Below are positions 21,779 through 43,724 of a stretch of 64,000 nucleotides of DNA, piece after piece. Each line of letters begins with the position of its first letter. Position 1 is the first letter of the stretch. The position numbers and the translations under genes are program-made. This DNA comes from Candidatus Sumerlaeota bacterium (GTDB taxonomy: Bacteria; Bacillota; SLNR01): contig JAXGQE010000010.1 of assembly GCA_040766585.1 (NCBI GenBank), positions 63,117 through 127,116 on the forward strand. The letters run 5' to 3'. A model generated the notes under the pieces. That model saw only the letters and a list, made by a program, of their open reading frames with translations. It ran no database searches and was not told the DNA's origin.

Positions 21779-21795
21779 AAGTGAGGAGGGTAACC

Positions 21796-24204
21796 ATGAC
21801 AAAGCAAAATCAGTCATCCAATCATAAAGCAACCATCGGCATTACCGGAATGACTTGTGCCGCCTGTTCCGCCCGTGTGGAACGGGGATTGAAAGACACT
21901 CCCGGAGTAACGGATGCAGCCGTCAATCTGGCAACAGAGAAAGCCGTGGTGTCTTACGATCCTGAGGCCGTTTCACTGTCTGATTTGGTGCAGCGGGTGG
22001 AAGACATCGGGTACGGAGTCGTCCGGGATCGGATTTCTCTGGCAGTGGGCGGTATGACTTGTGCGGCCTGTTCCGCCCGAATTGGCACCCAGCTGGAGAA
22101 GGTTCCCGGTGTCCTGTCATCCCATGTGAATCTGGCTACAGAAAAAGCCGTAGTGGAATATCTTCCCGATATGGCCTCTGTATCCGATTTTCGGCGTGTC
22201 ATCCGCGATCTGGGATACACCATCATTGAAAGCGGTCCAGGGCGCGACGCTTCCGATGCGGAACGGGAAGCCCGTGAAGCGGAGATTCGCAAATTGAAAA
22301 ACCGATTCATATTTTCAGCGGTCCTGACACTGCCGCTGGTCAGCATGATGCTCCATGACCTGGGCATTCACATGCCGGCCTGGCTTATGGATATGCGTCT
22401 TCATTTTGTCCTGGCTACCATGGTGCAGATTGTAGCCGGTTCCACCTTTTACCGGGGAGCCTACCACAGTCTGAGAAGCGGTGCAGCCAATATGGATGTC
22501 CTGGTATCCATTGGAACAACGGCAGCCTACCTGTACAGCGTAGCGTCTACCTTTTTCATCGACGGCTTCATCTATTACGAAGCGGCGGCTGTAATCCTTA
22601 CTCTGGTGCTTTTGGGTAAATTGCTGGAGGCCAATGCCAAAGGTCGTACCTCAGAAGCCATCAAGAAGCTGATGGGTCTCCAGCCCAAAACAGCCCATGT
22701 GATAAAAAATGGAGAAGAAGTGGTGGTCCCCATTGAAGAACTGGAAGTGGGGGATCGGATTGTAGTTCGGCCGGGTGAGAAGATCCCGGTGGATGGGCAT
22801 ATGCTGGAAGGATTCAGTTCAGTGGATGAATCCATGCTCACCGGAGAAAGCATCCCGGTGGATAAGCACCCTGGAGATGAAGTCGTGGGTGCAACCATCA
22901 ATCTGCAGGGAATGATCCAGATGGAAGCCACCCGGGTGGGTCGAGATACGGCGTTGGCCCAGATTATCCGGATGGTGGAAGAAGCCCAGGGATCCAAAGC
23001 TCCGATTCAGCGACTGGCCGACCGGGTGGCTGGAGTCTTTGTACCCGTGGTCTTACTGATTGCATTGGGAACTTTTGCTGGATGGATGCTGGTATCGGGC
23101 AGTTTCACAGATGCCCTGATCCATGCCACGGCGGTCCTGGTCATCGCCTGTCCCTGCAGCCTGGGGTTGGCCACCCCCACAGCCATCATGGTGGGAACCG
23201 GACGGGGAGCTGAATCCGGTATACTGATCAAGGGCGGAGAATATCTGGAAAAAGCCCACAGTGTGAATGTGGTGGTCCTGGATAAAACCGGTACATTAAC
23301 CCGCGGTCAGCCGGAACTGACGGGAGTGTGGCCACTTTCGGGAGATGAAAATGAACTGCTGCGGATCGCGGCATCCGCCGAACAGGGATCCGAACATCCC
23401 CTGGGACAGGCCATTGTGGCCGGGGCCCGGGCGCGGGAACTGAAACTGGATACCCCGCAACAGTTTGCCGCTGTTGCCGGGCATGGAATTGAAGCCCAGA
23501 TCAACGGCCGGGCAGTCCTTTTGGGCAACCGGAAGATGATGACAGAGAAAAACATTGAATATCTGCCTGGAGAAGGGCTTTTGACAGAAGCAGAAAACCG
23601 CGGGGAGACGGCCATGTTGGCGGCCATCGACGGAAAACTGGCCGGGGTAATCTCGGTTGCGGATACGGTCAAGGATACCTCCCGGCAGGCGGTGGCCGAA
23701 CTGAAAAAGATGGGCATGGATGTGGTTATGATCACCGGAGACAACCGCCGTACTGCTCAAGCCATCGGGGATCTGGTGGGAATCAGCCATATACTGGCAG
23801 AAGTCCTGCCGCAGGATAAAGCCAAGGAAGTGGAGAAACTGAAAGGAGAAGGGAAAGTGGTGGCTATGGTGGGGGACGGAATCAACGATGCTCCCGCCCT
23901 GGCGACAGCAGACCTGGGCCTGGCGATTGGCACAGGAACCGATGTAGCCATTGAAACCGCCGGCATTACCCTGATGAGCGGAGACCTGATGGGAGTAGTG
24001 TCCGCCATCCGACTGAGCCGACGGACCATGCGCACCATCCGCCAGAATCTTTTTTGGGCCTTCTTCTACAATATCCTGGGAATACCATTGGCGGCGGCCG
24101 GGTACCTGAATCCCATGATTGCCGGAGCAGCCATGGCATTTAGTTCAGTATCCGTGGTAACCAACTCACTGCTGCTGAAGCGATACAATCCCCGCAGCAA
24201 CTGA
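21796..24204 (+). CDS. copA: copper-translocating P1B-type ATPase
   Basis: ORF 21781-24204, start at ATG 21796 behind GAGGAGGG; two N-terminal HMA domains ([10 protein letters not shown] twice), CPC, DKTGTLT and GDGINDAP motifs. Confidence 0.93.
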
Positions 24205-24459: not shown

Positions 24460-24510
24460 CGAGGCAGGAAATGTGTAAACGGCATTGGGGAATTCATCGT
24501 CGATGTCAGT

Positions 24511-24546
24511 CAGGGCAGCCGGGATCCGGATTTCGGCTGCCCTGGT
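24511..24546 (+). terminator. stem-loop after copZ (possible terminator or attenuator)
   Basis: Perfect 11-bp stem CAGGGCAGCCG/CGGCTGCCCTG with 12-nt loop, followed by GTTCTTTCT (weak T-tract). Confidence 0.4.
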
Positions 24547-24580
24547 TCTTTCTGGCAACCTATGGAAAAGGAGGGATCCT

Positions 24581-25363
24581 ATGCTGAGCGATCGGGAACG
24601 AATGCGCTATTCTCGCCAGATTCTTCTGGATGAGGTGGGTGAAAGCGGGCAGTTGAAATTGAAAGAAGCCAGTGTACTGATCGTGGGCTGCGGAGGCTTG
24701 GGATCGCCTGTCGCCATGTATCTGGCGGCAGCCGGAGTCGGCACCATCGCGGTTTTGGATAAAGATGTGGTGGAACTGTCCAATCTTCAGCGCCAGATCA
24801 TGCACAGCATGGACCGTTTGGGTGTACCCAAAGCGATGTCAGCCCGGATGACCTTGGAATCCATGAATCCTGAAATACAAATCCGGGAGTATATCCGGGA
24901 ACTGGTGCCTGAAAATGTTCAGGAATTCATTCGAGACTTTGATGTTGTCATTAACGGTGTCGACAATTTTGAGACCCGTTTTCTTCTGAATGATGCCTGT
25001 TATCTGGAAAAGAAGCCGCTGATCGAGGCTGGGGTACTGCGGTACGATGGATTGGTGATGACCATCCTTCCGGACCAGGGACCCTGTTATCGCTGTCTTT
25101 TTCCGCATATACCTGAGGAAGGAACCGTATCCTCCACTCAAACACTGGGTCTGTTGGCCACCATTCCCGGAATTGCCGGGACAATCCAGGCAACTGAAGC
25201 ACTGAAGGTAATCCTGGGAATCGGCAAACCCTTGACCGGGAGGGTTTTGGCATTCAACGCACTGGAGGGGCATTATGATGTGATTGACTGGCCTCGGGAT
25301 CCCCACTGCCCTCTGTGCGGAGAGCATCCCACCATCCACACTCCGGGAGAAGATTTTGAGTAA
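24581..25363 (+). CDS. ThiF/MoeB/HesA-family E1-like adenylyltransferase
   Basis: ORF 24485-25363, start at ATG 24581 behind AAAGGAGGG; nucleotide-binding GCGGLGSP; C-terminal CxxC...CxxC (CYRC...CPLC). Confidence 0.85.
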   Translation: MLSDRERMRYSRQILLDEVGESGQLKLKEASVLIVGCGGLGSPVAMYLAAAGVGTIAVLDKDVVELSNLQRQIMHSMDRLGVPKAMSARMTLESMNPEIQIREYIRELVPENVQEFIRDFDVVINGVDNFETRFLLNDACYLEKKPLIEAGVLRYDGLVMTILPDQGPCYRCLFPHIPEEGTVSSTQTLGLLATIPGIAGTIQATEALKVILGIGKPLTGRVLAFNALEGHYDVIDWPRDPHCPLCGEHPTIHTPGEDFE

Positions 25364-25823: not shown

Positions 25824-26876
25824 TTAGAAGAACTGCAGGTACTCGGGTTTCATGTAGTGGTGGATCAAAACGCGGATCGTACCGGCCAGGGGTATAGCAA
25901 AAACGACTCCGGCAAAGCCGAAAAAGCGAGCACCGATCAATACAGCCAGGATAATGATCAGAGGGTGCAGATTAATACTTTCTGCCCCAATGATCCAGGG
26001 GCGTATGACATAAGCTTCGAACATCTTCACGACAAATACCAGGAATATGACGACATAGACCAGTTCCCGAGCCTGAAATGATGCAATGATCATGGGAAGC
26101 AGCATACCCAGCAGCGGTCCCAGGTACGGCACAATGTTTGCAAAGCCGGCGAAAATACCCAAAACCAGAGCATAGCGAATGCCTACGAATGCAAAAAAAG
26201 CGGTGTACATGATCGAGACAATGATTATGATCAGAAACTGACCTCGGAAAAACTGGCGCATGATGGTGTTCAAATCGGTCATGACCGGCCGGGTTCGAGT
26301 GCGGCCTTCTTCGGTGAACAGATTATAGAATGTATCGGAAACCAGAGAAATATCTTTTAAGAGATAGAAAGTGAATATGGGGGCTATGAGAAAATTGATC
26401 ACATGACGGTAGATACCAAAGAAATTCTCAATAATGCTGTTGACCGTGGTGATAATGCCAACCTCAAATTGACGGATTTGCTGGTCAATGACAACCCGCA
26501 TGCTTTGAGGCAGTGATATTTGCTCATAGCTGGATTCCATCAACGCAATGAAGCTTTGAATCTGGGCGTTGTATTCCGGGAGGGCTTCGACAAAACGGTA
26601 AATCTGGCTGATGGCAATGGGGATCAGAAAAGCCAGACTAATACCGAGTGTGCCAAACACCAGCAAAAAGATGATCAGAATCGCCATCGATCGCCCGACT
26701 TTCAACCGCTCCAGACGGTTGACCAGGGGCAGGATCATGAATGCGAATATCGCCGACAAAACAAACGGGAAGAGCATGTTGCGAATCTGGTAGAAAACGA
26801 CAGCCACAACAATCCCCATGACAGCGCGAACGACGGGTATACGGTAGGAACCAATGGTAATATACAACGAATTCAC
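25824..26876 (-). CDS. AI-2E-family (PerM/UPF0118) membrane transporter
   Basis: 350 aa, about 8 TM helices, AI-2E-like sequence; annotated start is GTG 26876, alternative starts downstream possible. Confidence 0.82.
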   Translation of the reverse strand: MNSLYITIGSYRIPVVRAVMGIVVAVVFYQIRNMLFPFVLSAIFAFMILPLVNRLERLKVGRSMAILIIFLLVFGTLGISLAFLIPIAISQIYRFVEALPEYNAQIQSFIALMESSYEQISLPQSMRVVIDQQIRQFEVGIITTVNSIIENFFGIYRHVINFLIAPIFTFYLLKDISLVSDTFYNLFTEEGRTRTRPVMTDLNTIMRQFFRGQFLIIIIVSIMYTAFFAFVGIRYALVLGIFAGFANIVPYLGPLLGMLLPMIIASFQARELVYVVIFLVFVVKMFEAYVIRPWIIGAESINLHPLIIILAVLIGARFFGFAGVVFAIPLAGTIRVLIHHYMKPEYLQFF

Positions 26877-26879
26877 TCC

Positions 26880-27083
26880 CTAGATAGAGTATCGCTGCAA
26901 GCGAATTTCTTCGCGGGTGTCAGCGGGAATCTCGAACATTGTGTAGAATTCTTCGGGCGTGTAGTGGAATTTGCGCCCTTTTTCCTCATCGAAGTACCGG
27001 AAACCGTAAGGATAGAGGTTTTCTTTGTTTAAGGCGGCCAGGAAAATAAAAATCTGAACGGTAACCGTTCGTCCGGTGGCCAT
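26880..27083 (-). CDS. hypothetical small protein (start uncertain; could extend to 27323)
   Basis: C-terminal part of ORF 26880-27722; the N-terminal part overlaps the divergent MFS gene. Stop lies 3 nt before the AI-2E start; no convincing SD at either ATG. Confidence 0.3.
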   Translation of the reverse strand: MATGRTVTVQIFIFLAALNKENLYPYGFRYFDEEKGRKFHYTPEEFYTMFEIPADTREEIRLQRYSI

Positions 27084-27398
27084 CTCGACGGCATCGGTTT
27101 CAAATGATTTGCCGCCGTGGGAATACTTGAAATTGCGCAGCACAGAATCACCTTCTATATGGAATTCGACTGAAATTGGGAAATCACAGATGATTTCGGT
27201 TTTCTTGTCATTTCTCCTTCTTTTCCCGCCATGCTGGAAAAGAATCTGCAGGAGATTTGCTGCTGAATCGGGAATCGATTGCGGAGTTTGCACACAAAAG
27301 AAAACAATGGCTGGTCCCGCCATGAAGCGGGGGAAAAAGAGTCCGCTGTGTCTGAAGCTGGCTTTTGATGGGACAGCTATTGAAAAGGGGAGAATCCG

Positions 27399-28622
27399 TT
27401 GTCTGAGCGATCCTACATTTTCCGAACGGTGGTGCTTTTCAGTTTGGGGTGGGCGATTTTGTATGCCGACCGGACAGTGCTCTATCCAATGCTTTCCATC
27501 ATTGCTGATGATTTTCAGCTCAGCGGGGCTGAGACCGGTCTGATTACCAGCGCATATTTTTCTTTGTATGTTCTGATGCAGATTCCCACAGGCATTCTGG
27601 GGGATCGTCTGGGGTTGAAAAGGATCCTGGTGGTCTCCTATTTTCTGGCCGGGCTGGGGATGCTGGCGGTGGGTTTGTTTGCTACGGAGTATCGCCTGCT
27701 TCTGCTTCTGGTGGGACTGCACGGACTGGGAGCCGGCTCGTTTTACCCAGCAGTGTATGGAATGACCATGGCAACCGTGCCAGCCGCCATGAGAGGGATC
27801 AGTTCAGCACTGGTCAACTGCGGTATGTCTCTGGGCCTGGCATTGGGTCTGGTGATTAGTGGACCGCTCTACCTGGCTGCTCAAAACTGGCGCATTCCGT
27901 TTTTGGTATTGGCTGTGCCGACTCTGCTGATGCCGATACTGTTTGCCCGGTATCTGCGAGATACACGCCCTGTTGTCTCACTGACGCCGGTGGCTTTTCG
28001 CGCCATTCTCAAGGATGCACGCCTGATGCGGATCAATGCGGCCTTGTTTTGTTCTATGTACGGGTTTTGGGTGGTGGTAACCTGGGGTCCTACCTTTTTC
28101 CAAACTGAACGGGGACTGGGACTGACCTTGTCCGGTCTGTATCTGGGAGTGGTGGCTGTTTCTGCAATCCCTGCCGCCCTTTATCTTGGAAGACTCTCGG
28201 ATCGTATCGGGCGGCGAAAGATCAGCACCATCCTTCTGCCACTGTCTGCACTGACAGTGCTCATGCTGGCAGGAGTGCGTTCCCAGCCGCTTCTGGTGGG
28301 ACTGCTGATCATCTACGGACTAGTAGGGAAACTGGCTTGGGATCCGGTGGTGGTGGCCTGGACCGGTGATTATGCACTGCGCGACTATCCCGACAGCCTG
28401 GGAACAGTCATCGGTATCTACAATTTCAGCGGGATGCTTTCTGCTGTGGTGGCACCCCTGATCAGCGGTCTCATCCGTGACTATACCGGATCGCTGTTGG
28501 CAGCCTTTTACATGGGGGCGGTGCTCATTTTTATCGGTTTTTTGCTGATTCGTACGGTTCCGGAGGCCGCTGCAGCCCGCACGGGGCAAGAAAACCTTCT
28601 GTCCAAGGTCCATAGCGACTGA
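27399..28622 (+). CDS. MFS-family transporter
   Basis: 407 aa, about 12 TM helices, MFS-like loop GDRLGLKR; TTG start with RBS AAAAGGGGAG 6 nt upstream. Confidence 0.82.
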   Translation: MSERSYIFRTVVLFSLGWAILYADRTVLYPMLSIIADDFQLSGAETGLITSAYFSLYVLMQIPTGILGDRLGLKRILVVSYFLAGLGMLAVGLFATEYRLLLLLVGLHGLGAGSFYPAVYGMTMATVPAAMRGISSALVNCGMSLGLALGLVISGPLYLAAQNWRIPFLVLAVPTLLMPILFARYLRDTRPVVSLTPVAFRAILKDARLMRINAALFCSMYGFWVVVTWGPTFFQTERGLGLTLSGLYLGVVAVSAIPAALYLGRLSDRIGRRKISTILLPLSALTVLMLAGVRSQPLLVGLLIIYGLVGKLAWDPVVVAWTGDYALRDYPDSLGTVIGIYNFSGMLSAVVAPLISGLIRDYTGSLLAAFYMGAVLIFIGFLLIRTVPEAAAARTGQENLLSKVHSD

Positions 28623-28730
28623 GAATATTTCCAAGGAAGTGGAGACATCGGGTAGGGAATTGACTGTCGCAGGCGAATATGAATAGGAATAGACCAGCCG
28701 GTTCGAACCGGCAAAGAGGAGTGATCCGGT

Positions 28731-29063
28731 ATGATGCTGTTGACGGTGTCGTTTGACAGCCGACAGGTTCAGGAAGAGGAGATTGCCCGCATAGAAGAGC
28801 GGATCTGGAATACGCTGAAGCTTTCCGGAGAATACAATCGTACCCTGGAGGACAATCTGTGGGTAATCCATTATGTGATTGAAAAGAAAATCCGGGAAGA
28901 TTCTCTGCAAAAGGTGGTCGGTCTGGAAAAGGCAAAAGAAGTGAGTTTACGTGAATATACAGAAGATGACCGCCGTTCTCGCAGGAAAAAAGGCCGTGAT
29001 ACCCAGGACAATGACGAAGATGACGACGGAATGGACCTGGATGATGACGAGGACGATGAATAG
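28731..29063 (+). CDS. hypothetical protein with highly acidic C-terminal tail
   Basis: 110 aa; RBS AAAGAGGAG upstream; basic RRSRRKKGR patch followed by DEDDDGMDLDDDEDDE tail. Confidence 0.5.
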   Translation: MMLLTVSFDSRQVQEEEIARIEERIWNTLKLSGEYNRTLEDNLWVIHYVIEKKIREDSLQKVVGLEKAKEVSLREYTEDDRRSRRKKGRDTQDNDEDDDGMDLDDDEDDE

Positions 29064-29074
29064 GAGGCGGACCG

Positions 29075-29263
29075 ATGGAATACGATGATCAGTACCCTTC
29101 GAAACTGAAAGCGTTGGAAAACCATCAATTGGCCAAAGAGTACGAGCAGGTCAAAAATACCTTGTACAAGGGTTATCGCTATGGTCTTTGGGATATTCCG
29201 GAAAGGACGCTCTTTTCGATGATTGAAGCCATTGAAGCAGAGCTGGCCAGTCGTAAAGAATAG
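29075..29263 (+). CDS. hypothetical small protein
   Basis: 62 aa; RBS TAGGAGG 6 nt upstream; 11 nt after the preceding small gene. Confidence 0.45.
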   Translation: MEYDDQYPSKLKALENHQLAKEYEQVKNTLYKGYRYGLWDIPERTLFSMIEAIEAELASRKE

Positions 29264-29306
29264 AATCTTCTGAGCAATAAATGGAATGAAAGGGGGACAG
29301 ATACAC

Positions 29307-29435
29307 ATGGCACAGTGGGTATGTGAAAAGTGCGGACACAGCCAAGAAGGGCGCTGCAAACCGAAAAAGTGTCCGGCGTGCGGTGAAAGCGGCACTTTTG
29401 TTAAAGATGCAGCTGCCGAAGAGAAGAAGAAATAG
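29307..29435 (+). CDS. rubredoxin-like zinc-ribbon mini-protein (RCKP-type)
   Basis: 42-aa ORF below the track cutoff: MAQWVCEKCGHSQEGRCKPKKCPACGESG... with CxxC-x12-CxxC; RBS AAAGGGGGA 9 nt upstream; ends 16 nt before the aldo/keto reductase start. Confidence 0.55.
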   Translation: MAQWVCEKCGHSQEGRCKPKKCPACGESGTFVKDAAAEEKKK

Positions 29436-29451
29436 CGGGGGAGGGATCCAT

Positions 29452-30411
29452 ATGGAAATGAGAAAGCTGGGCAACAGCGGTCTGGAAGTGACGGAGCTTT
29501 GCTTTGGCGTACTGCCTATGGGGCCTCTGCAGGCGGATATTTCCCGAGAGGAAGCCGTGTCCCTCCTGGTAGAAGGGATGAAAAAAGGGATAACTTTTTT
29601 TGATACAGCCGAAAGCTACCGGACCCAGGAATACCTGGGTGAGGCGATTCGAAAGGCTGGTCTCAGCGAAGAATCCCTGGTGGTAGCCACAAAATCAGCT
29701 GCCGTCAGCTACGAAGAGATGGAAATCAGCATTCAAAAATCTTTGAAAGAACTGGGACTGCCCTACATCCATATTTATCATCTGCATGCTGCCCGGGTTA
29801 CCGCTGCTGTGTTTGAAGAACGAGCAGGGGCTCTGCAGTGTCTGAAAGACTACCAGGCAAAAGGGTTGATTAAGGCAGTGGGAATTTCAACTCATGCTGT
29901 GGATGTGGTTGAAAAAGCAGCTACCCATCCTGACATTGATGTAATCTTTCCATTGATCAACCGGACCGGAATGGGCATCCTGGCTGGAACCAAAGAAGAT
30001 ATGATCGCCGCCATCAGCAAAGCGGCCGATGCCGGGAAAGGGATATATGCCATGAAAGCGCTGTCTGGAGGCCATCTGATTGATGATCTAAAAGGCGCTT
30101 TCGGCTATGTGCGGGACTTAAAGGGGGTCGAGGCTGTAGCGGTGGGGATGGTCCATCCCAATGAACTGGAAGTTAACTTCAAAATTTTTGACGATCCCTC
30201 CTATGAACCGGGACCGGATGCAGTATCTCACCGCAAGAAAAAGAGACTGATGGTCATGGGTTTTTGCATCGGCTGTGGCCGCTGTGTGGAAGCCTGCCCC
30301 AATCACGCGCTGCACCTGGAGAACAAAAAAGCGATGGTGGATCATGAAAAATGCATACTTTGCGGCTACTGCAGCGGAGTATGTCCCATGTTTGCCCTGC
30401 GTCTGATTTAA
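29452..30411 (+). CDS. aldo/keto reductase fused to a C-terminal 2x[4Fe-4S] ferredoxin domain
   Basis: ORF 29323-30411 reads through the preceding mini-gene in another frame; start reset to ATG 29452 behind GGGAGGG. C-terminus CIGCGRCVEACP ... CILCGYCSGVCP. Confidence 0.85.
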   Translation: MEMRKLGNSGLEVTELCFGVLPMGPLQADISREEAVSLLVEGMKKGITFFDTAESYRTQEYLGEAIRKAGLSEESLVVATKSAAVSYEEMEISIQKSLKELGLPYIHIYHLHAARVTAAVFEERAGALQCLKDYQAKGLIKAVGISTHAVDVVEKAATHPDIDVIFPLINRTGMGILAGTKEDMIAAISKAADAGKGIYAMKALSGGHLIDDLKGAFGYVRDLKGVEAVAVGMVHPNELEVNFKIFDDPSYEPGPDAVSHRKKKRLMVMGFCIGCGRCVEACPNHALHLENKKAMVDHEKCILCGYCSGVCPMFALRLI

Positions 30412-30491
30412 TCTGGAATTTCGCGGCGGGATCTTTGCCGTATGAATCTGTGATCGGATACGACCCATTACAAATATAGGAGGAGATGTGG

Positions 30492-30989
30492 ATGAAAACC
30501 AAAGAGAATCTGATGGCTGCTTTTGGCGGAGAGTCCCAGGCCAACCGCAAATACCTGGCTTTTTCAAAAAAAGCAGAAAAAGAAGGCTACAAGAATGTGT
30601 CCAGGATCTTTGCGGCCATTGCGGAAGCTGAAACAATCCATGCTTTGAAACATTTCGAAATCGCTGGCAAAGTCGGAAGTACACTGGAGAATCTGAAAGC
30701 TGCCTCCGAGGGTGAAGAGTATGAATTCACGGAAATGTATCCAGAGTTTATCGAAACGGCCAAAGCCGAAGACGACAAAAAGGCGCTCCAAACATTGGAA
30801 TATGCCAATGCAGCGGAGAAAGTTCACGGAGGTATATTTGCCGACCTGGAAAAACAGGTGGCTGGTGGAAGCGACGCAGAAGCAGGAGAAGTCCATCTTT
30901 GCCCGGTATGCGGATGGGTAGGTTTTGAACCGATTCCGGAACGGTGCCCCATATGCAATACAGTCAAGTCAGTATTTCGGATCTTCTAA
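30492..30989 (+). CDS. rubrerythrin
   Basis: Start at ATG 30492 behind AGGAGGAG (7-nt spacing); di-iron ExxH motifs (AEAETIHALKH, AEKVHGG) and C-terminal rubredoxin motif CPVCG...CPICN. Confidence 0.88.
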   Translation: MKTKENLMAAFGGESQANRKYLAFSKKAEKEGYKNVSRIFAAIAEAETIHALKHFEIAGKVGSTLENLKAASEGEEYEFTEMYPEFIETAKAEDDKKALQTLEYANAAEKVHGGIFADLEKQVAGGSDAEAGEVHLCPVCGWVGFEPIPERCPICNTVKSVFRIF

Positions 30990-31110: not shown

Positions 31111-31139
31111 TTGACATCCGAATGAGAATTCGATACAAT
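31111..31139 (+). promoter_or_regulatory. sigma-A-type promoter driving the riboswitch-ATPase transcript
   Basis: TTGACA (31111-31116), 17-nt spacer, TACAAT (31134-31139). Confidence 0.7.
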
Positions 31140-31147
31140 AATTTTGT

Positions 31148-31290
31148 CGAAATGAAGGGGAGTAGCTCACAGTAGTCACTGTCCGTCAGGGCGTCAATCC
31201 GGCGAAAGCCCGCTCTGCCGGCCAAGAAGTTTTGGCGAGCAAGACCTTTGTTCCGGTTCCAAAGAACCGGAATAGGGGTCTTTTTTTTGA
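31148..31290 (+). promoter_or_regulatory. candidate yybP-ykoY (Mn2+-sensing) riboswitch with terminator-type expression platform
   Basis: Contains GGGGAGTAGC (31157-31166), GGGCGTCAA, CCGGCGAAAGCCCG and GCAAGACC, which I recognise as yybP-ykoY core segments; ends in a hairpin plus T8 (31252-31288), 39 nt before the ATPase start. Confidence 0.65.
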
Positions 31291-31326: not shown

Positions 31327-34089
31327 ATGGAAAGTGAAAAATGCTGGTCGTTAGAGGAATCGGAAGCAGTATGTCATCGTCTGCAGACCAATCTGGAATC
31401 AGGATTAACTTCGGAAGCCGTGCAGCGGAAGATCAAAGAATACGGAATGAATGAGCTGGAGGAAAGGGAGAAAATATCACCCTGGGCCATTTTTGCTGCC
31501 CAGTTCAAGGATTTTATGGTACTGGTCCTTCTGGGAGCGGCGCTGTTGTCCGGCGTACTGGGGGAACTGGTGGACACTTTTGCGATTGCTGCCATCATTC
31601 TGATCAATGCAGTTTTGGGATTCGTTCAGGAATATCGGGCGGAGCAGTCCATGGCGGCTTTGAGGGAAATGTCAGCCCCCACAGCGCAGGTGGTGAGAGA
31701 AGGCCGGATCCAGGTGATTCCTGCCCGCCAGCTGGTACCCGGGGATCTGGTGGTCCTGGAATCCGGCGATAAAGTACCGGCAGATGGACGACTGGTGGAG
31801 GTCAGTAATTTGCGCATTGATGAGTCCATGCTGACGGGGGAATCCAAACCATCCAAAAAAATCGCTGTTCCTCTGGAACAGGAGGCGGCTGGCCCTGCCG
31901 ATAAGAAGAACATGTCGTTTATGGGAACCATCGTCACGGATGGGCGGGGGCACATGATTGTTACAGAAACCGGCATGAAAACAGAAATGGGCCGTATAGC
32001 CCATATGATCCAGTCCGTACAAGAGGAACAAACACCCCTGCAGAAGAAACTGGATCATCTGGGGAAGCTTCTGGTGGTGGGGTGTCTGCTGATTTGTGTA
32101 GTTGTAGCAGTTACAGGGATTCTTCGCGGTGAAGATCCACTGATGATGCTAATGGTGGGAATCAGTCTTGCCGTGGCGGCGATTCCGGAAGGACTGCCGG
32201 CCATTGTAACTGTATCTTTGGCCATTGGTGTTCAGAAAATGATAAAGCGCCACGCTTTGATCCGCAGCCTGCCGGCCGTTGAGACACTGGGATGCACCAA
32301 TTTCATCTGTTCGGATAAAACCGGTACACTGACAGAAAACAAGATGACCCTTAGAAAGATATATACCAACGGCCAGATCTTTGATATTACCGGAGTCGGT
32401 TACAGTCCAGTGGGTGAGTTCCGCCATCAGGAGCGACCGGTTACTGAAGAGGAATTTGAACAGCTGCGTCGGCTGCTGCAAATCGGAACGCTGGCATCCA
32501 ATGCCAACCTGATCGAAGCAGGAACGCATCTGGATGAAGCCACCACCGATACCGGAAATGGAGACTGGACCATCAGCGGAGACCCCACCGAAGGGGCCAT
32601 TGTTGTGGCAGCTGCCAAAGCCGGTGTCTGGAAGGAGCAGTTGAAAACCGAATGCACCCGGGTACTGGAACTTCCCTTTGATTCAGACCGCAAGCGAATG
32701 TCCACGGTCTGCCACACTCCCGCGGACAATGGCATTGTCAGCGTCAAAGGGGCTGCAGAATCGCTTTTGGATTTGTGCGACGGAATTTGGGAAGCGGGAT
32801 ATATTAAGAAAATGACACCGGAAGATCGGGTCCGGGTGACTCGCATGAACGAGGAAATGGCATCCATGGCCCTGCGAGTCCTGGGGATAGCTTACAAAGA
32901 TGTGGGCAGCCCTGGGGAGGTGACTCCGGAAACGGCCGAGTCCGGCCTGATATTTGCCGGGCTGGTGGGCATGATTGATCCGCCCCGGGAAGAAGCCCGG
33001 GCAGCCATTGCCCGTTGTGACCGGGCAGGCATCAAGACAGTCATGATCACCGGAGATCATCGCCTGACGGCTGAGGCTATCGGCAAAGAGCTGGAAATAC
33101 TCAAAGACGGAGACTCCATTTTAACTGGGGAAGACTTGAACCGAATGTCCGTGGAAGAGCTGTCTCACAATGCAGAGAAAGTGTCCGTTTACGCTCGGGT
33201 GGCACCGCATCACAAACTGAATATTGTCAAAGCACTGGAAGAAAGAGGCCATATCGTGGCCATGACCGGAGACGGGGTCAACGATGCTCCGGCCGTAAAA
33301 GAAGCGGGTATCGGGGTGGCCATGGGAATCACCGGGACCGATGTGACCAAGGAAGCTTCATCGATGATTTTGATGGATGACAACTTTGCTACCATCGTAG
33401 CTGCGGTGGAAGAAGGAAGAGCCATCTATGACAATATTCGAAAATTTATCCGGTATCTGCTGTCCTGCAATGTGGGTGAAGTATTAACGATGTTTATTGC
33501 ATCCCTCATGGGGATGCCACTGCCGCTGCTGCCCATCCAGATTCTTTGGGTGAATCTGGCTACTGACGGTCTGCCGGCCATTGCTCTGGGGCTGGATCCT
33601 TCAGATTCCGGCATTATGGAACGGGCTCCTCGAGGATCCAACGAAACGGTCTTTTCCAGAGGATTGAGTCGGATCATCATTTTGAGGGGTGTGGTCATCA
33701 GTGTCATCACTTTGCTGGCTTTTGCCCTATCCCTGGAGCAGTTTCCCGGGAATCTGACGCTGGCCCGGACAACGGCATTTTCCGTTCTGGTTATATCTCA
33801 GCTGATGCATGTGTTTGAGTGCCGGTCAGAAACAAAGAACATCTGGGAAATCGGATTTTTTACGAATCTGTACCTGGTGGGGGCCGTATGCATATCCCTG
33901 TTGATGCTGCTGCTGGTTATTTATGTGCCGGCTATGCAGCCGGTTTTCAGAACCATACCGCTGGATACAGGACATTGGCTGTTTGCTTTGGGGCTGGGAG
34001 CGGCCGGATCATTGTTGATGAGGGTTCTGCTGTGGGCCGCCGGATACATTTTAGGACCGGTATCTCTGCCCGATGTAAAGAAGGTGTAA
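31327..34089 (+). CDS. P2-type (SERCA/PMCA-like) cation-transporting ATPase; probably a Mn2+/Ca2+ efflux pump
   Basis: 920 aa; DKTGTLT phosphorylation motif, [10 protein letters not shown], 10-TM architecture; RBS GGGAGG 6 nt upstream; riboswitch-like leader. Confidence 0.92.
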
Positions 34090-43420: not shown

Positions 43421-43724
43421 TAACGACATTATAGATTGCATCCGAACCAGTTGGATGTGGTGGACGGATACAGAAGGAGGTGGAAGATGGGTAAGGGAAG
43501 AGATCCGATCGGGAACACGGCATGGAGTCTTCTCGGTTGTCAAAGCGCCAGAACTTGACTTCGGTCAAGTTGACGAGGGAGAGGTTAATCGAATCTTCGG
43601 CGGGTGCCTCTCGGTGCAGTCACCATCGTAGAAATGCTACAAATCCCGGAAGTGATTTCGGTGACAAAAGGCATTGCAGTGACAATTGTAGTTTGATATA
43701 TGAATATTGGGGGAGGAATCGTTT

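Follow-up and report, generated by a model that had tools for sequence, protein, structure and literature searches.

The DNA analysed here is a stretch of 64,000 nt (the window) from the Candidatus Sumerlaeota bacterium contig JAXGQE010000010.1, in which five co-directional genes occupy positions 28731-30989 of the plus strand. They encode, in this order, an orphan protein of 110 amino acids (aa) with an acidic C-terminal tail (p110; 28731..29063), which is the first of a conserved local string, a second orphan of 62 aa (p62; 29075..29263), a Cys-rich, rubredoxin-like protein of 42 aa (the mini-protein; 29307..29435), an aldo/keto reductase of 319 aa with a C-terminal 2x[4Fe-4S] ferredoxin domain (AKR-Fd; 29452..30411) and a rubrerythrin of 165 aa (30492..30989). 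The successive gaps are 11, 43, 16 and 80 nt. In an original prediction, made from the letters of the sequence, the last three genes had been taken for a compact redox module in which the mini-protein and the ferredoxin domain could bring electrons to the reductase, with rubrerythrin as the partner that removes peroxide.

The mini gene starts with ATG at 29307 and ends with TAG at 29433-29435; the ribosome-binding site (RBS) read from the sequence, AAGGGGGA (29291..29298, plus strand), lies 8 nt before the start codon. The product, MAQWVCEKCGHSQEGRCKPKKCPACGESGTFVKDAAAEEKKK, combines the pattern CxxC-x12-CxxC with a fifth Cys situated within R-C-K-P (Cys6, Cys9, Cys17, Cys22 and Cys25) and has a Lys-rich tail. 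The features and coordinates that had been predicted are all confirmed. The protein matches the NCBIfam family NF045720 (RCKP-type rubredoxin-like domain-containing protein) with 64.3 bits, the cut-off being 45 (E 5.4e-18), and its residues 1-33 align with positions 1-33 of the 34 in the profile. The next-best NCBIfam and Pfam matches are rubrerythrin models, at their C-terminal rubredoxin-like part. Orthologues of the mini gene occur at the loci that we numbered L001, L002, L006, L096 and L101. Over the 33 core codons, the window gene differs from that in L001 by 3, 1 and 15 bases at the first, second and third codon position, respectively. The codon changes comprise 13 synonymous and 3 non-synonymous ones in this comparison, and 12 and 4 in the comparison with L096. 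All four orthologues examined (L001, L002, L006 and L096) have an RBS of their own (AGGAGG or GGGAGG) 6-9 nt before the ATG. From the family score, the mostly synonymous change and the conserved presence of an RBS, all features of the sequence, we conclude that the 42-aa open reading frame (ORF) is a true gene.

The mechanical list of ORFs merges the mini gene with the reductase gene, as had been noticed earlier: an ORF of 362 aa with a GTG start (29323-30411) is the reductase frame extended upstream across the mini ORF. We considered this merged ORF as an N-terminally extended reductase and rejected it as an artefact, since the extension is interrupted by stop codons 6-51 nt before the reductase start in three of the four orthologous loci (L002, L006 and L096), and since the public record holds the identical reductase in its 319-aa form (P0001). 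The mini product, in a 42-aa or a 49-aa version, is absent from a collection of 15 billion proteins, although that collection includes three other products of the source NCBI contig (128 kb), namely p62, reductase and rubrerythrin; the mini gene was thus evidently missed by the gene caller in the source genome. RCKP mini genes are easily missed in this way.

Among 1.84 billion representative proteins, the RCKP family amounts to 119 clusters at 50% identity, with members nearly all of 31-94 aa; the homologues retrieved by a word search measure 34-72 aa, and the family is almost always stand-alone. Thirteen positions are invariant in 19 homologues (M1, C6, E7, K8, C9, G10, R16, C17, K18, P19, C22, C25 and K33). 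The RCKP tetrapeptide recurs throughout 80 metagenomic copies, and a more distant relative, P0277, has RCRP. The mini-protein shares with NF045720 the 33-residue core MAxWxCEKCG....GRCKPKKCPxC, the five Cys and the small stand-alone size, and it differs from that family in nothing of note; it is 93% identical to P0121. The RCKP-type family is named in NCBIfam, but the literature searched describes no function for it.

The mini-protein, of which the structured core measures 33 residues, gives no match to the classical rubredoxin family PF00301 at E<=0.01. Its matches to rubredoxins in the PDB are weak and partial (E 0.2-1.4), and a PDB sequence search with the mini-protein profile yielded no significant match. 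The Pfam family PF21349, the rubredoxin-like domain of rubrerythrin (RUBY_RBDX), aligns with 25.0 bits, just under its gathering score of 26.5. An AlphaFold2 (AF2) model with a mean predicted local distance difference test score (pLDDT) of 79.5 shows a three-stranded knuckle fold. Its tightest superpositions in the PDB are on the C-terminal domains of rubrerythrins (9FJ2, 1RYT and 1B71), with a root-mean-square deviation (rmsd) of 0.9-1.3 A over 32-34 residues at 32-41% identity; the rmsd on MCM zinc ribbons is about 3.2 A. The likeness to these rubrerythrin domains extends to the spacing of the Cys knuckles (x12 in the mini-protein, x11 in the window rubrerythrin), to a Pro three residues before the second knuckle and to the three-stranded fold, whereas the mini-protein differs from them by the lack of a fused diiron domain, by the extra invariant Cys in the RCKPKK loop and by its Lys-rich tail. 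Going by sequence and model, the mini-protein amounts to a detached version of the rubredoxin-like domain with which rubrerythrins end, to which an invariant Cys in a basic R-C-K-P-K-K loop has been added. One possibility is that this fifth Cys acts as a reactive thiol of low pKa.

The next gene, 16 nt downstream of the mini ORF, has the domain composition that had been predicted for it. Pfam Aldo_ket_red (PF00248) covers residues 15-209 of AKR-Fd with 94.9 bits (cut-off 24), the profile being aligned only to position 197 of 291, and several Fer4 families match residues 266-316. The barrel takes up about residues 1-255 and the ferredoxin domain residues 266-319 (30247-30408 in the DNA), with two CxxCxxCxxxCP motifs at residues 272-283 (C272, C275, C278 and C282-P) and 301-312 (C301, C304, C307 and C311-P). 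In all, 1711 relatives were found at E<=1e-10. Among the 120 best relatives listed, the length ranges from 297 to 367 aa, with about 316 aa in most, and each has both AKR and Fer4 Pfam domains. These 120 come from Bacillota, Atribacterota, Desulfobacterota and metagenome-assembled genomes labelled Sumerlaeota; the nearest ones are from metagenome-assembled genomes labelled Candidatus Sumerlaeota. In their sources, they are named only as “predicted aldo/keto reductase-like oxidoreductase”.

Across 25 diverse members of this family, the mean column identity is 67%. The tetrad D51, Y56, K81 and H112, which aligns with the tetrad positions of solved aldo/keto reductases (AKRs), is invariant among these 25, as are C17, C130, all eight ferredoxin Cys and a KALxGGHL loop. 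The AF2 model of AKR-Fd (pLDDT 87.9; predicted TM-score, pTM, 0.85) consists of eight strand-helix units; the invariant loop 203-209, equivalent to the loop that clamps the cofactor, is modelled at a pLDDT below 50. All the best fold matches listed from the PDB are AKRs, namely L-galactose dehydrogenases (7SMI/7SVQ) and the compact PA4992 (4EXA). AKR-Fd has in common with them the (alpha/beta)8 barrel and the Asp-Tyr-Lys-His tetrad (TM-score 0.84 when normalised to PA4992, rmsd 2.4 A), but it differs from them by the obligate 2x[4Fe-4S] fusion and by the extra invariant Cys17 and Cys130. The L-galactose dehydrogenases align with it only over the first ~150-170 residues, that is, without the C-terminal part of the barrel, and so carry no information on its NAD(P)H binding. 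No solved structure of an AKR fused to a 2x[4Fe-4S] domain was found in the PDB, nor did the literature searched contain a characterised member, the sole mentions being proteomics tables that list a COG1453 aldo/keto reductase. AKR-Fd belongs to a large, uniform and uncharacterised family of strict anaerobes.

The rubrerythrin was also identified as predicted, by Pfam Rubrerythrin (PF02915) with 80.1 bits and by a C-terminal CPVC...CPIC; RUBY_RBDX gives 23.2 bits. The diiron ligand motifs can be read in the translation (E14, E47xxH50, GEEYE with E76/E79, and E110xxH113), followed by the C-terminal knuckles C137xxC140...C152xxC155 in the rubredoxin-like part (30894-30986 in the DNA). Its scores stay below the NCBIfam equivalog cut-offs both for rubrerythrin (104.4 against 200 bits) and for nigerythrin (108.6 against 340 bits), so that we regard it as a short member of the family and not as an orthologue or equivalog of the characterised enzymes.

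The conservation of the trio was assessed in two surveys, one of 80 loci from 80 species that have a relative of the reductase, taken with flanks of up to 5 kb, and one of 80 metagenomic loci that carry an RCKP gene. At the reductase loci, RCKP genes were sought by tblastn, with a hidden Markov model (HMM) built from 19 RCKP proteins and with a regular expression for small CxxC..CxxC ORFs upstream. Both tblastn and the HMM find a mini gene upstream of the reductase in three of the 80 species (L001, L002 and L006), which are the nearest relatives, with 75, 67 and 59% identity, and are all labelled Candidatus Sumerlaeota. There is no convincing rubredoxin-like small ORF upstream of the other 77 reductases; the regular expression adds one unrelated low-complexity match, in L042. 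Rubrerythrin follows the reductase in one species (L001). Conversely, the reductase stands beside the mini gene in one of the 80 metagenomic loci, L101, which belongs to the same clade (72% identity) and has the order p62-mini-AKRFd-rubrerythrin-ATPase. No recurrent partner of the reductase emerged when the three genes on either side were clustered over 77 loci, the largest clusters being ABC ATPases and MFS transporters at 12-13 loci.

Within the clade, the gene order varies around a constant core. The window reads MFS-p110-p62-mini-AKRFd-Rbr-leader-ATPase, Rbr being rubrerythrin, and L001 has the same order up to Rbr; the short contig of L101 comprises p62-mini-AKRFd-Rbr-ATPase, and L096 reads MFS-p110-p62-mini-AKRFd, after which the locus is cut off. 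In L002, the order is p110-p62-mini-AKRFd-glycosyltransferase-leader-ATPase, in L006, it is p110-(insert)-p62-mini-AKRFd, followed by unrelated genes, and L005 has neither the mini gene nor rubrerythrin (MFS-p110-p62-AKRFd-leader-ATPase). The core that stays is p110-p62-AKRFd, while the mini gene (absent in L005) and the rubrerythrin gene (absent at the site in L002, L005 and L006, its presence here being limited to the window, L001 and L101) come and go, which argues for a local, evolutionarily fluid string of genes and not for a conserved system. The p110 gene lies upstream of the reductase in every clade locus that reaches far enough (L001, L002, L005, L006, L096 and L097); it has four homologues in 5.8 billion clusters, no Pfam family and, in NCBIfam, a sub-threshold match only. 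The p62 product, which has no family match in Pfam or NCBIfam, is kept in the same clade loci at 38-71% identity, and its exact sequence is on record for the source contig. These two orphans are the steadiest upstream partners of the reductase in the clade, and both are retained in L005, which lacks the mini gene.

We therefore hold that the string is probably lineage-specific and assembled from gene families whose distributions are independent, so that the trio would not be a conserved module. Against this, the spacing between the mini gene and the reductase gene is kept at 15-19 nt in the window (16 nt), L001, L002, L096 and L101, which could reflect a functional coupling specific to the clade. 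The layout in the window is operon-like (same strand, gaps of 16 and 80 nt), but the surveys show no co-occurrence across independent lineages. What stands of the predicted redox module is, accordingly, a set of real, co-directional and closely spaced genes for iron-based redox proteins typical of anaerobes; a conserved association of the three does not.

RCKP genes occur elsewhere in neighbourhoods of another kind. In four loci, the next gene on the same strand, 20-72 nt after the RCKP gene, encodes a rubrerythrin-family diiron protein of about 165 aa that has no CxxC (L108, 2656-3317; L116, 1730-2389; L136, 511-1169; L152, 420-1100); judged by their sequences, these pairs are most simply read as split rubrerythrins. 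A canonical rubrerythrin is encoded 54-64 nt downstream in L169 and L172. Eight loci carry, near the RCKP gene, a gene for a flavoprotein composed of two rubredoxin-like domains, Pyr_redox_2 and Rubredoxin_C. An AhpC-cupin gene is found upstream in four loci, and the gene of a Fur-family regulator overlaps the RCKP gene or precedes it by 2-17 nt in four loci. Cytochrome c peroxidase occurs nearby in two loci (in L167, a di-haem type 30 nt downstream), and in L092-L095, DUF4492-cydAB (cytochrome bd) starts with a 4-nt overlap on the RCKP gene. Furthermore, an RCKP domain is predicted on one ORF together with a Fur-family (PerR-like) regulator in P0216 (155 aa) and, with the order reversed, in P0231 (92 aa), and in L168 (323-830), the Fur-family gene and the RCKP gene overlap by 14 nt; such joins may be true fusions or read-through gene calls.

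Six types of oxidative-stress genes account for 23 of 265 neighbours of RCKP genes and for 1 of 411 neighbours of reductase genes (odds ratio 39, Fisher p 4e-9), figures that have to be discounted for the choice of the query families from the RCKP neighbourhoods themselves and for the lack of phylogenetic independence among the loci; we count these neighbours as about eight distinct arrangements and not as 23 separate events. Taken together, the neighbourhoods suggest that the RCKP proteins are a trans-acting rubredoxin module for peroxide defence. Several observations weigh against such a role. About 55 of the 80 mini loci are without an oxidative-stress neighbour of this kind, and RCKP genes are also found in other contexts, namely Lon and ACPS genes (HSP20-Lon ... 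ACPS, in Desulfobaccales-type loci), ANTAR response regulators (13-20 loci), Sir2 and divergent HMA-type P-type ATPases. None of the Foldseek E-values of the mini-protein model (0.18-0.33 against rubrerythrin domains) reaches significance with a query of this small size; sequence matches in the PDB are no stronger for rubrerythrin than for zinc fingers, both being weak, and the sequence cannot tell Fe from Zn. Lastly, the functions proposed for the RCKP and AKR-Fd families derive from guilt by association, the literature searched containing no experiments on either of them.

A subfamily of RCKP proteins with C-terminal CxCxC tails (e.g., SSGCGCACSAKK) deserves separate mention. Its genes, in six loci (L111, L159, L160, L177, L178 and L180; e.g., L178, 1522-4413), stand divergent to, and about 280 nt from, the gene of an HMA-domain (Cu-type) P-type ATPase, an arrangement that hints at a role in metal handling.

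In its likeliest role, the mini-protein would bind one Fe via Cys6, Cys9, Cys22 and Cys25, like the rubrerythrin domain that it resembles, and carry single electrons for the defence against oxygen and peroxide, with rubrerythrin-type diiron peroxidases or related scavengers as recipients. AKR-Fd would most likely reduce a carbonyl compound, its clusters wiring the barrel to a low-potential ferredoxin, and would normally work without an RCKP protein, given that no RCKP gene is nearby in 77 of the 80 species. The rubrerythrin would be an ordinary one that reduces H2O2 with its diiron site and its own rubredoxin domain. In the clade, the three would be expressed together within a general neighbourhood of stress and detoxification genes; if any two of them interact, the mini-protein and rubrerythrin are more plausible candidates than the mini-protein and the reductase. 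The potentials of rubredoxin-type Fe(Cys)4 centres exceed those of the clusters of 2x[4Fe-4S] ferredoxins by several hundred mV. As the former are far more positive than the latter, an electron flow from the mini-protein through the ferredoxin domain to a carbonyl would run uphill, and any electron exchange would go from the reductase to the mini-protein and on to rubrerythrin. The uphill direction is one of the reasons why the chain originally proposed, in which the mini-protein feeds the ferredoxin domain, the AKR site reduces aldehydes and rubrerythrin removes peroxide as parts of one unit, appears very unlikely to us. The tight spacing on the same strand, the adjacency of mini and reductase genes retained in five clade members and the intact AKR catalytic tetrad speak for that unit, whereas 77 of the 80 reductase loci have no RCKP gene upstream (L005, of the same clade, is without one), and 79 of the 80 mini loci are without the reductase. 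A mini-protein dedicated to the reductase is thus not supported, the pairing being confined to the three closest relatives among 80 species and to a single one of the 80 mini loci; what the neighbourhoods elsewhere do back is a tie of the mini family to peroxide defence.

The chain might also be run backwards, AKR-Fd oxidising an alcohol, an aldehyde hydrate or NAD(P)H and its clusters passing electrons via the mini-protein to rubrerythrin. This would constitute a flavin-free substitute for NADH:rubredoxin oxidoreductase that feeds peroxide reduction, it runs thermodynamically downhill, it suits the order mini-AKR/Fd-rubrerythrin in the window, L001 and L101, and it would place the reductase in the slot that the rubredoxin-reductase-like flavoproteins fill near members of the mini family elsewhere. 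We nevertheless think it unlikely: L002, L005 and L006 keep the reductase without a downstream rubrerythrin, the reductase family elsewhere shows no link with genes of oxidative stress beyond the 1 in 411 neighbours given above, and we know of no precedent for a flavin-free AKR barrel that turns a hydride into separate electrons. Somewhat less doubtful, while still improbable in our estimation, is a mini-protein that is a zinc ribbon without redox function, acting as a metal buffer or chaperone, in regulation or as a thiol switch via Cys17 in its basic loop, and placed here because the region handles metal ions. The weak matches to zinc fingers and to RNA-polymerase and MCM zinc ribbons do equal those to rubrerythrin, and the Lys-rich tail, the CxCxC-tailed subfamily opposite HMA-type P-type ATPases in 6 loci, the members joined to, or lying beside, Fur-family regulators that respond to metal and peroxide and, in the window, the Cu-type ATPase 5 kb upstream and the Ca/Mn-type ATPase downstream would all fit. 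The best geometric fit, however, is to the Fe-binding rubrerythrin domain and not to the MCM ribbons, the top secondary NCBIfam and Pfam matches are rubrerythrin models, and the diiron proteins without a rubredoxin domain of their own, with which mini genes are directly paired, point most simply to split rubrerythrins. The role as a carrier in peroxide defence can be drawn further, into a scheme where RCKP mini-proteins are detachable rubredoxin modules of the rubrerythrin type that act in trans, completing split rubrerythrins and serving other scavengers of peroxide and oxygen, where the fifth Cys works as a thiol switch, in docking or in a ligand swap, and where, in this clade, the module has been wired to the clusters of AKR-Fd. 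In that full form we give it only a slim chance; were it true, it would open a flavin-free route from an organic substrate to the reduction of H2O2 by rubrerythrin.

The short gaps on one strand and the absence of terminator-like sites between the genes suggest that p110, p62, mini, AKR-Fd and rubrerythrin are probably transcribed together. On the plus strand between 28800 and 31240, no terminator-like site was predicted, the first one lying at 31241-31282, and in promoter scans neither p110 nor the mini gene was preceded by a sigma-70-like site. Within the 108 nt that separate p110 from the MFS transporter gene is a perfect palindrome of 14 nt, CCGGTTCGAACCGG (28698-28711), with no T-run after it, which could be an operator or a weak hairpin. 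We did not find a Fur or PerR gene in the window, where palindromes resembling PerR/Fur boxes are 3-mismatch matches only, far from the redox genes.

Downstream, a boundary region on the plus strand (31111..31282), made up of a promoter-like site (TTGACA-17-TACAAT, 31111-31139), a conserved leader and a strong terminator hairpin of 19 bp with a U-run (31241-31282), precedes a P-type ATPase gene (31327-34089). With a promoter-like site, leader and terminator of its own, the ATPase gene stands out as a separate unit; its product scores 767.5 bits on the NCBIfam model of PMR1-type Ca-ATPases, just under the cut-off of 798. In the leader of about 100 nt, the blocks AAGGGGAGUAGC ... GGCGUCAAUCC ... 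GAGCAAGACCUUUG continue into the 5′ arm of the terminator. In L002, L005 and L101, the leader is kept upstream of the orthologous ATPase, and its hairpins show compensatory changes. Its blocks resemble the yybP-ykoY Mn2+ riboswitch; Rfam gives no match to the leader even at E<=10. In Streptococcus, the yybP-ykoY Mn2+ riboswitch controls an Mn2+/Ca2+ P-type ATPase (PMC6649816).

Upstream of the string, the window encodes an HMA-domain heavy-metal P-type ATPase (21781-24204), a ThiF-family protein (24485-25363) and, on the minus strand, an AI-2E family transporter (25824-26876). The order ATPase/ThiF/AI-2E is also present in L002, so that the redox genes lie in conserved surroundings with many transporters of metal ions. 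Between the AI-2E and MFS genes, which are 520 nt apart, there is a candidate small-protein gene on the minus strand: the C-terminal ~100 residues (26880-27200; ...YPYGFRYFDEEKGRKFHYTPEEFYTMFEIPADTREEIRLQRYSI) of the mechanical ORF 26880-27722 resemble a real small protein. At gathering thresholds, the sole Rfam match in the window is a glmS ribozyme/riboswitch on the plus strand (43533-43687), with 102.8 bits against a gathering score of 37.

There is nothing unusual about the locus itself, where members of three catalogued families adjoin in a small number of related, uncultured anaerobes, and its interest is that of a pointer to two sizeable families without an assigned function, the RCKP mini-proteins and the AKR-ferredoxin fusions. 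The latter (roughly 316 aa, >1700 relatives) would represent an unusual route by which AKR chemistry is driven from iron-sulfur clusters. The former invite comparison with the chain of NADH:rubredoxin oxidoreductase, rubredoxin and rubrerythrin that reduces peroxide in clostridia and Desulfovibrio. Unlike in that chain, the carrier in the window is not a classical rubredoxin, as judged by the missing PF00301 match, and no flavoprotein reductase is encoded near the genes. The window resembles it in having the gene of a small, putative Fe(Cys)4 carrier near that of a rubrerythrin, and RCKP genes elsewhere are found, as in such a system, near rubredoxin-reductase-like flavoproteins, peroxiredoxin and PerR/Fur-type regulators.

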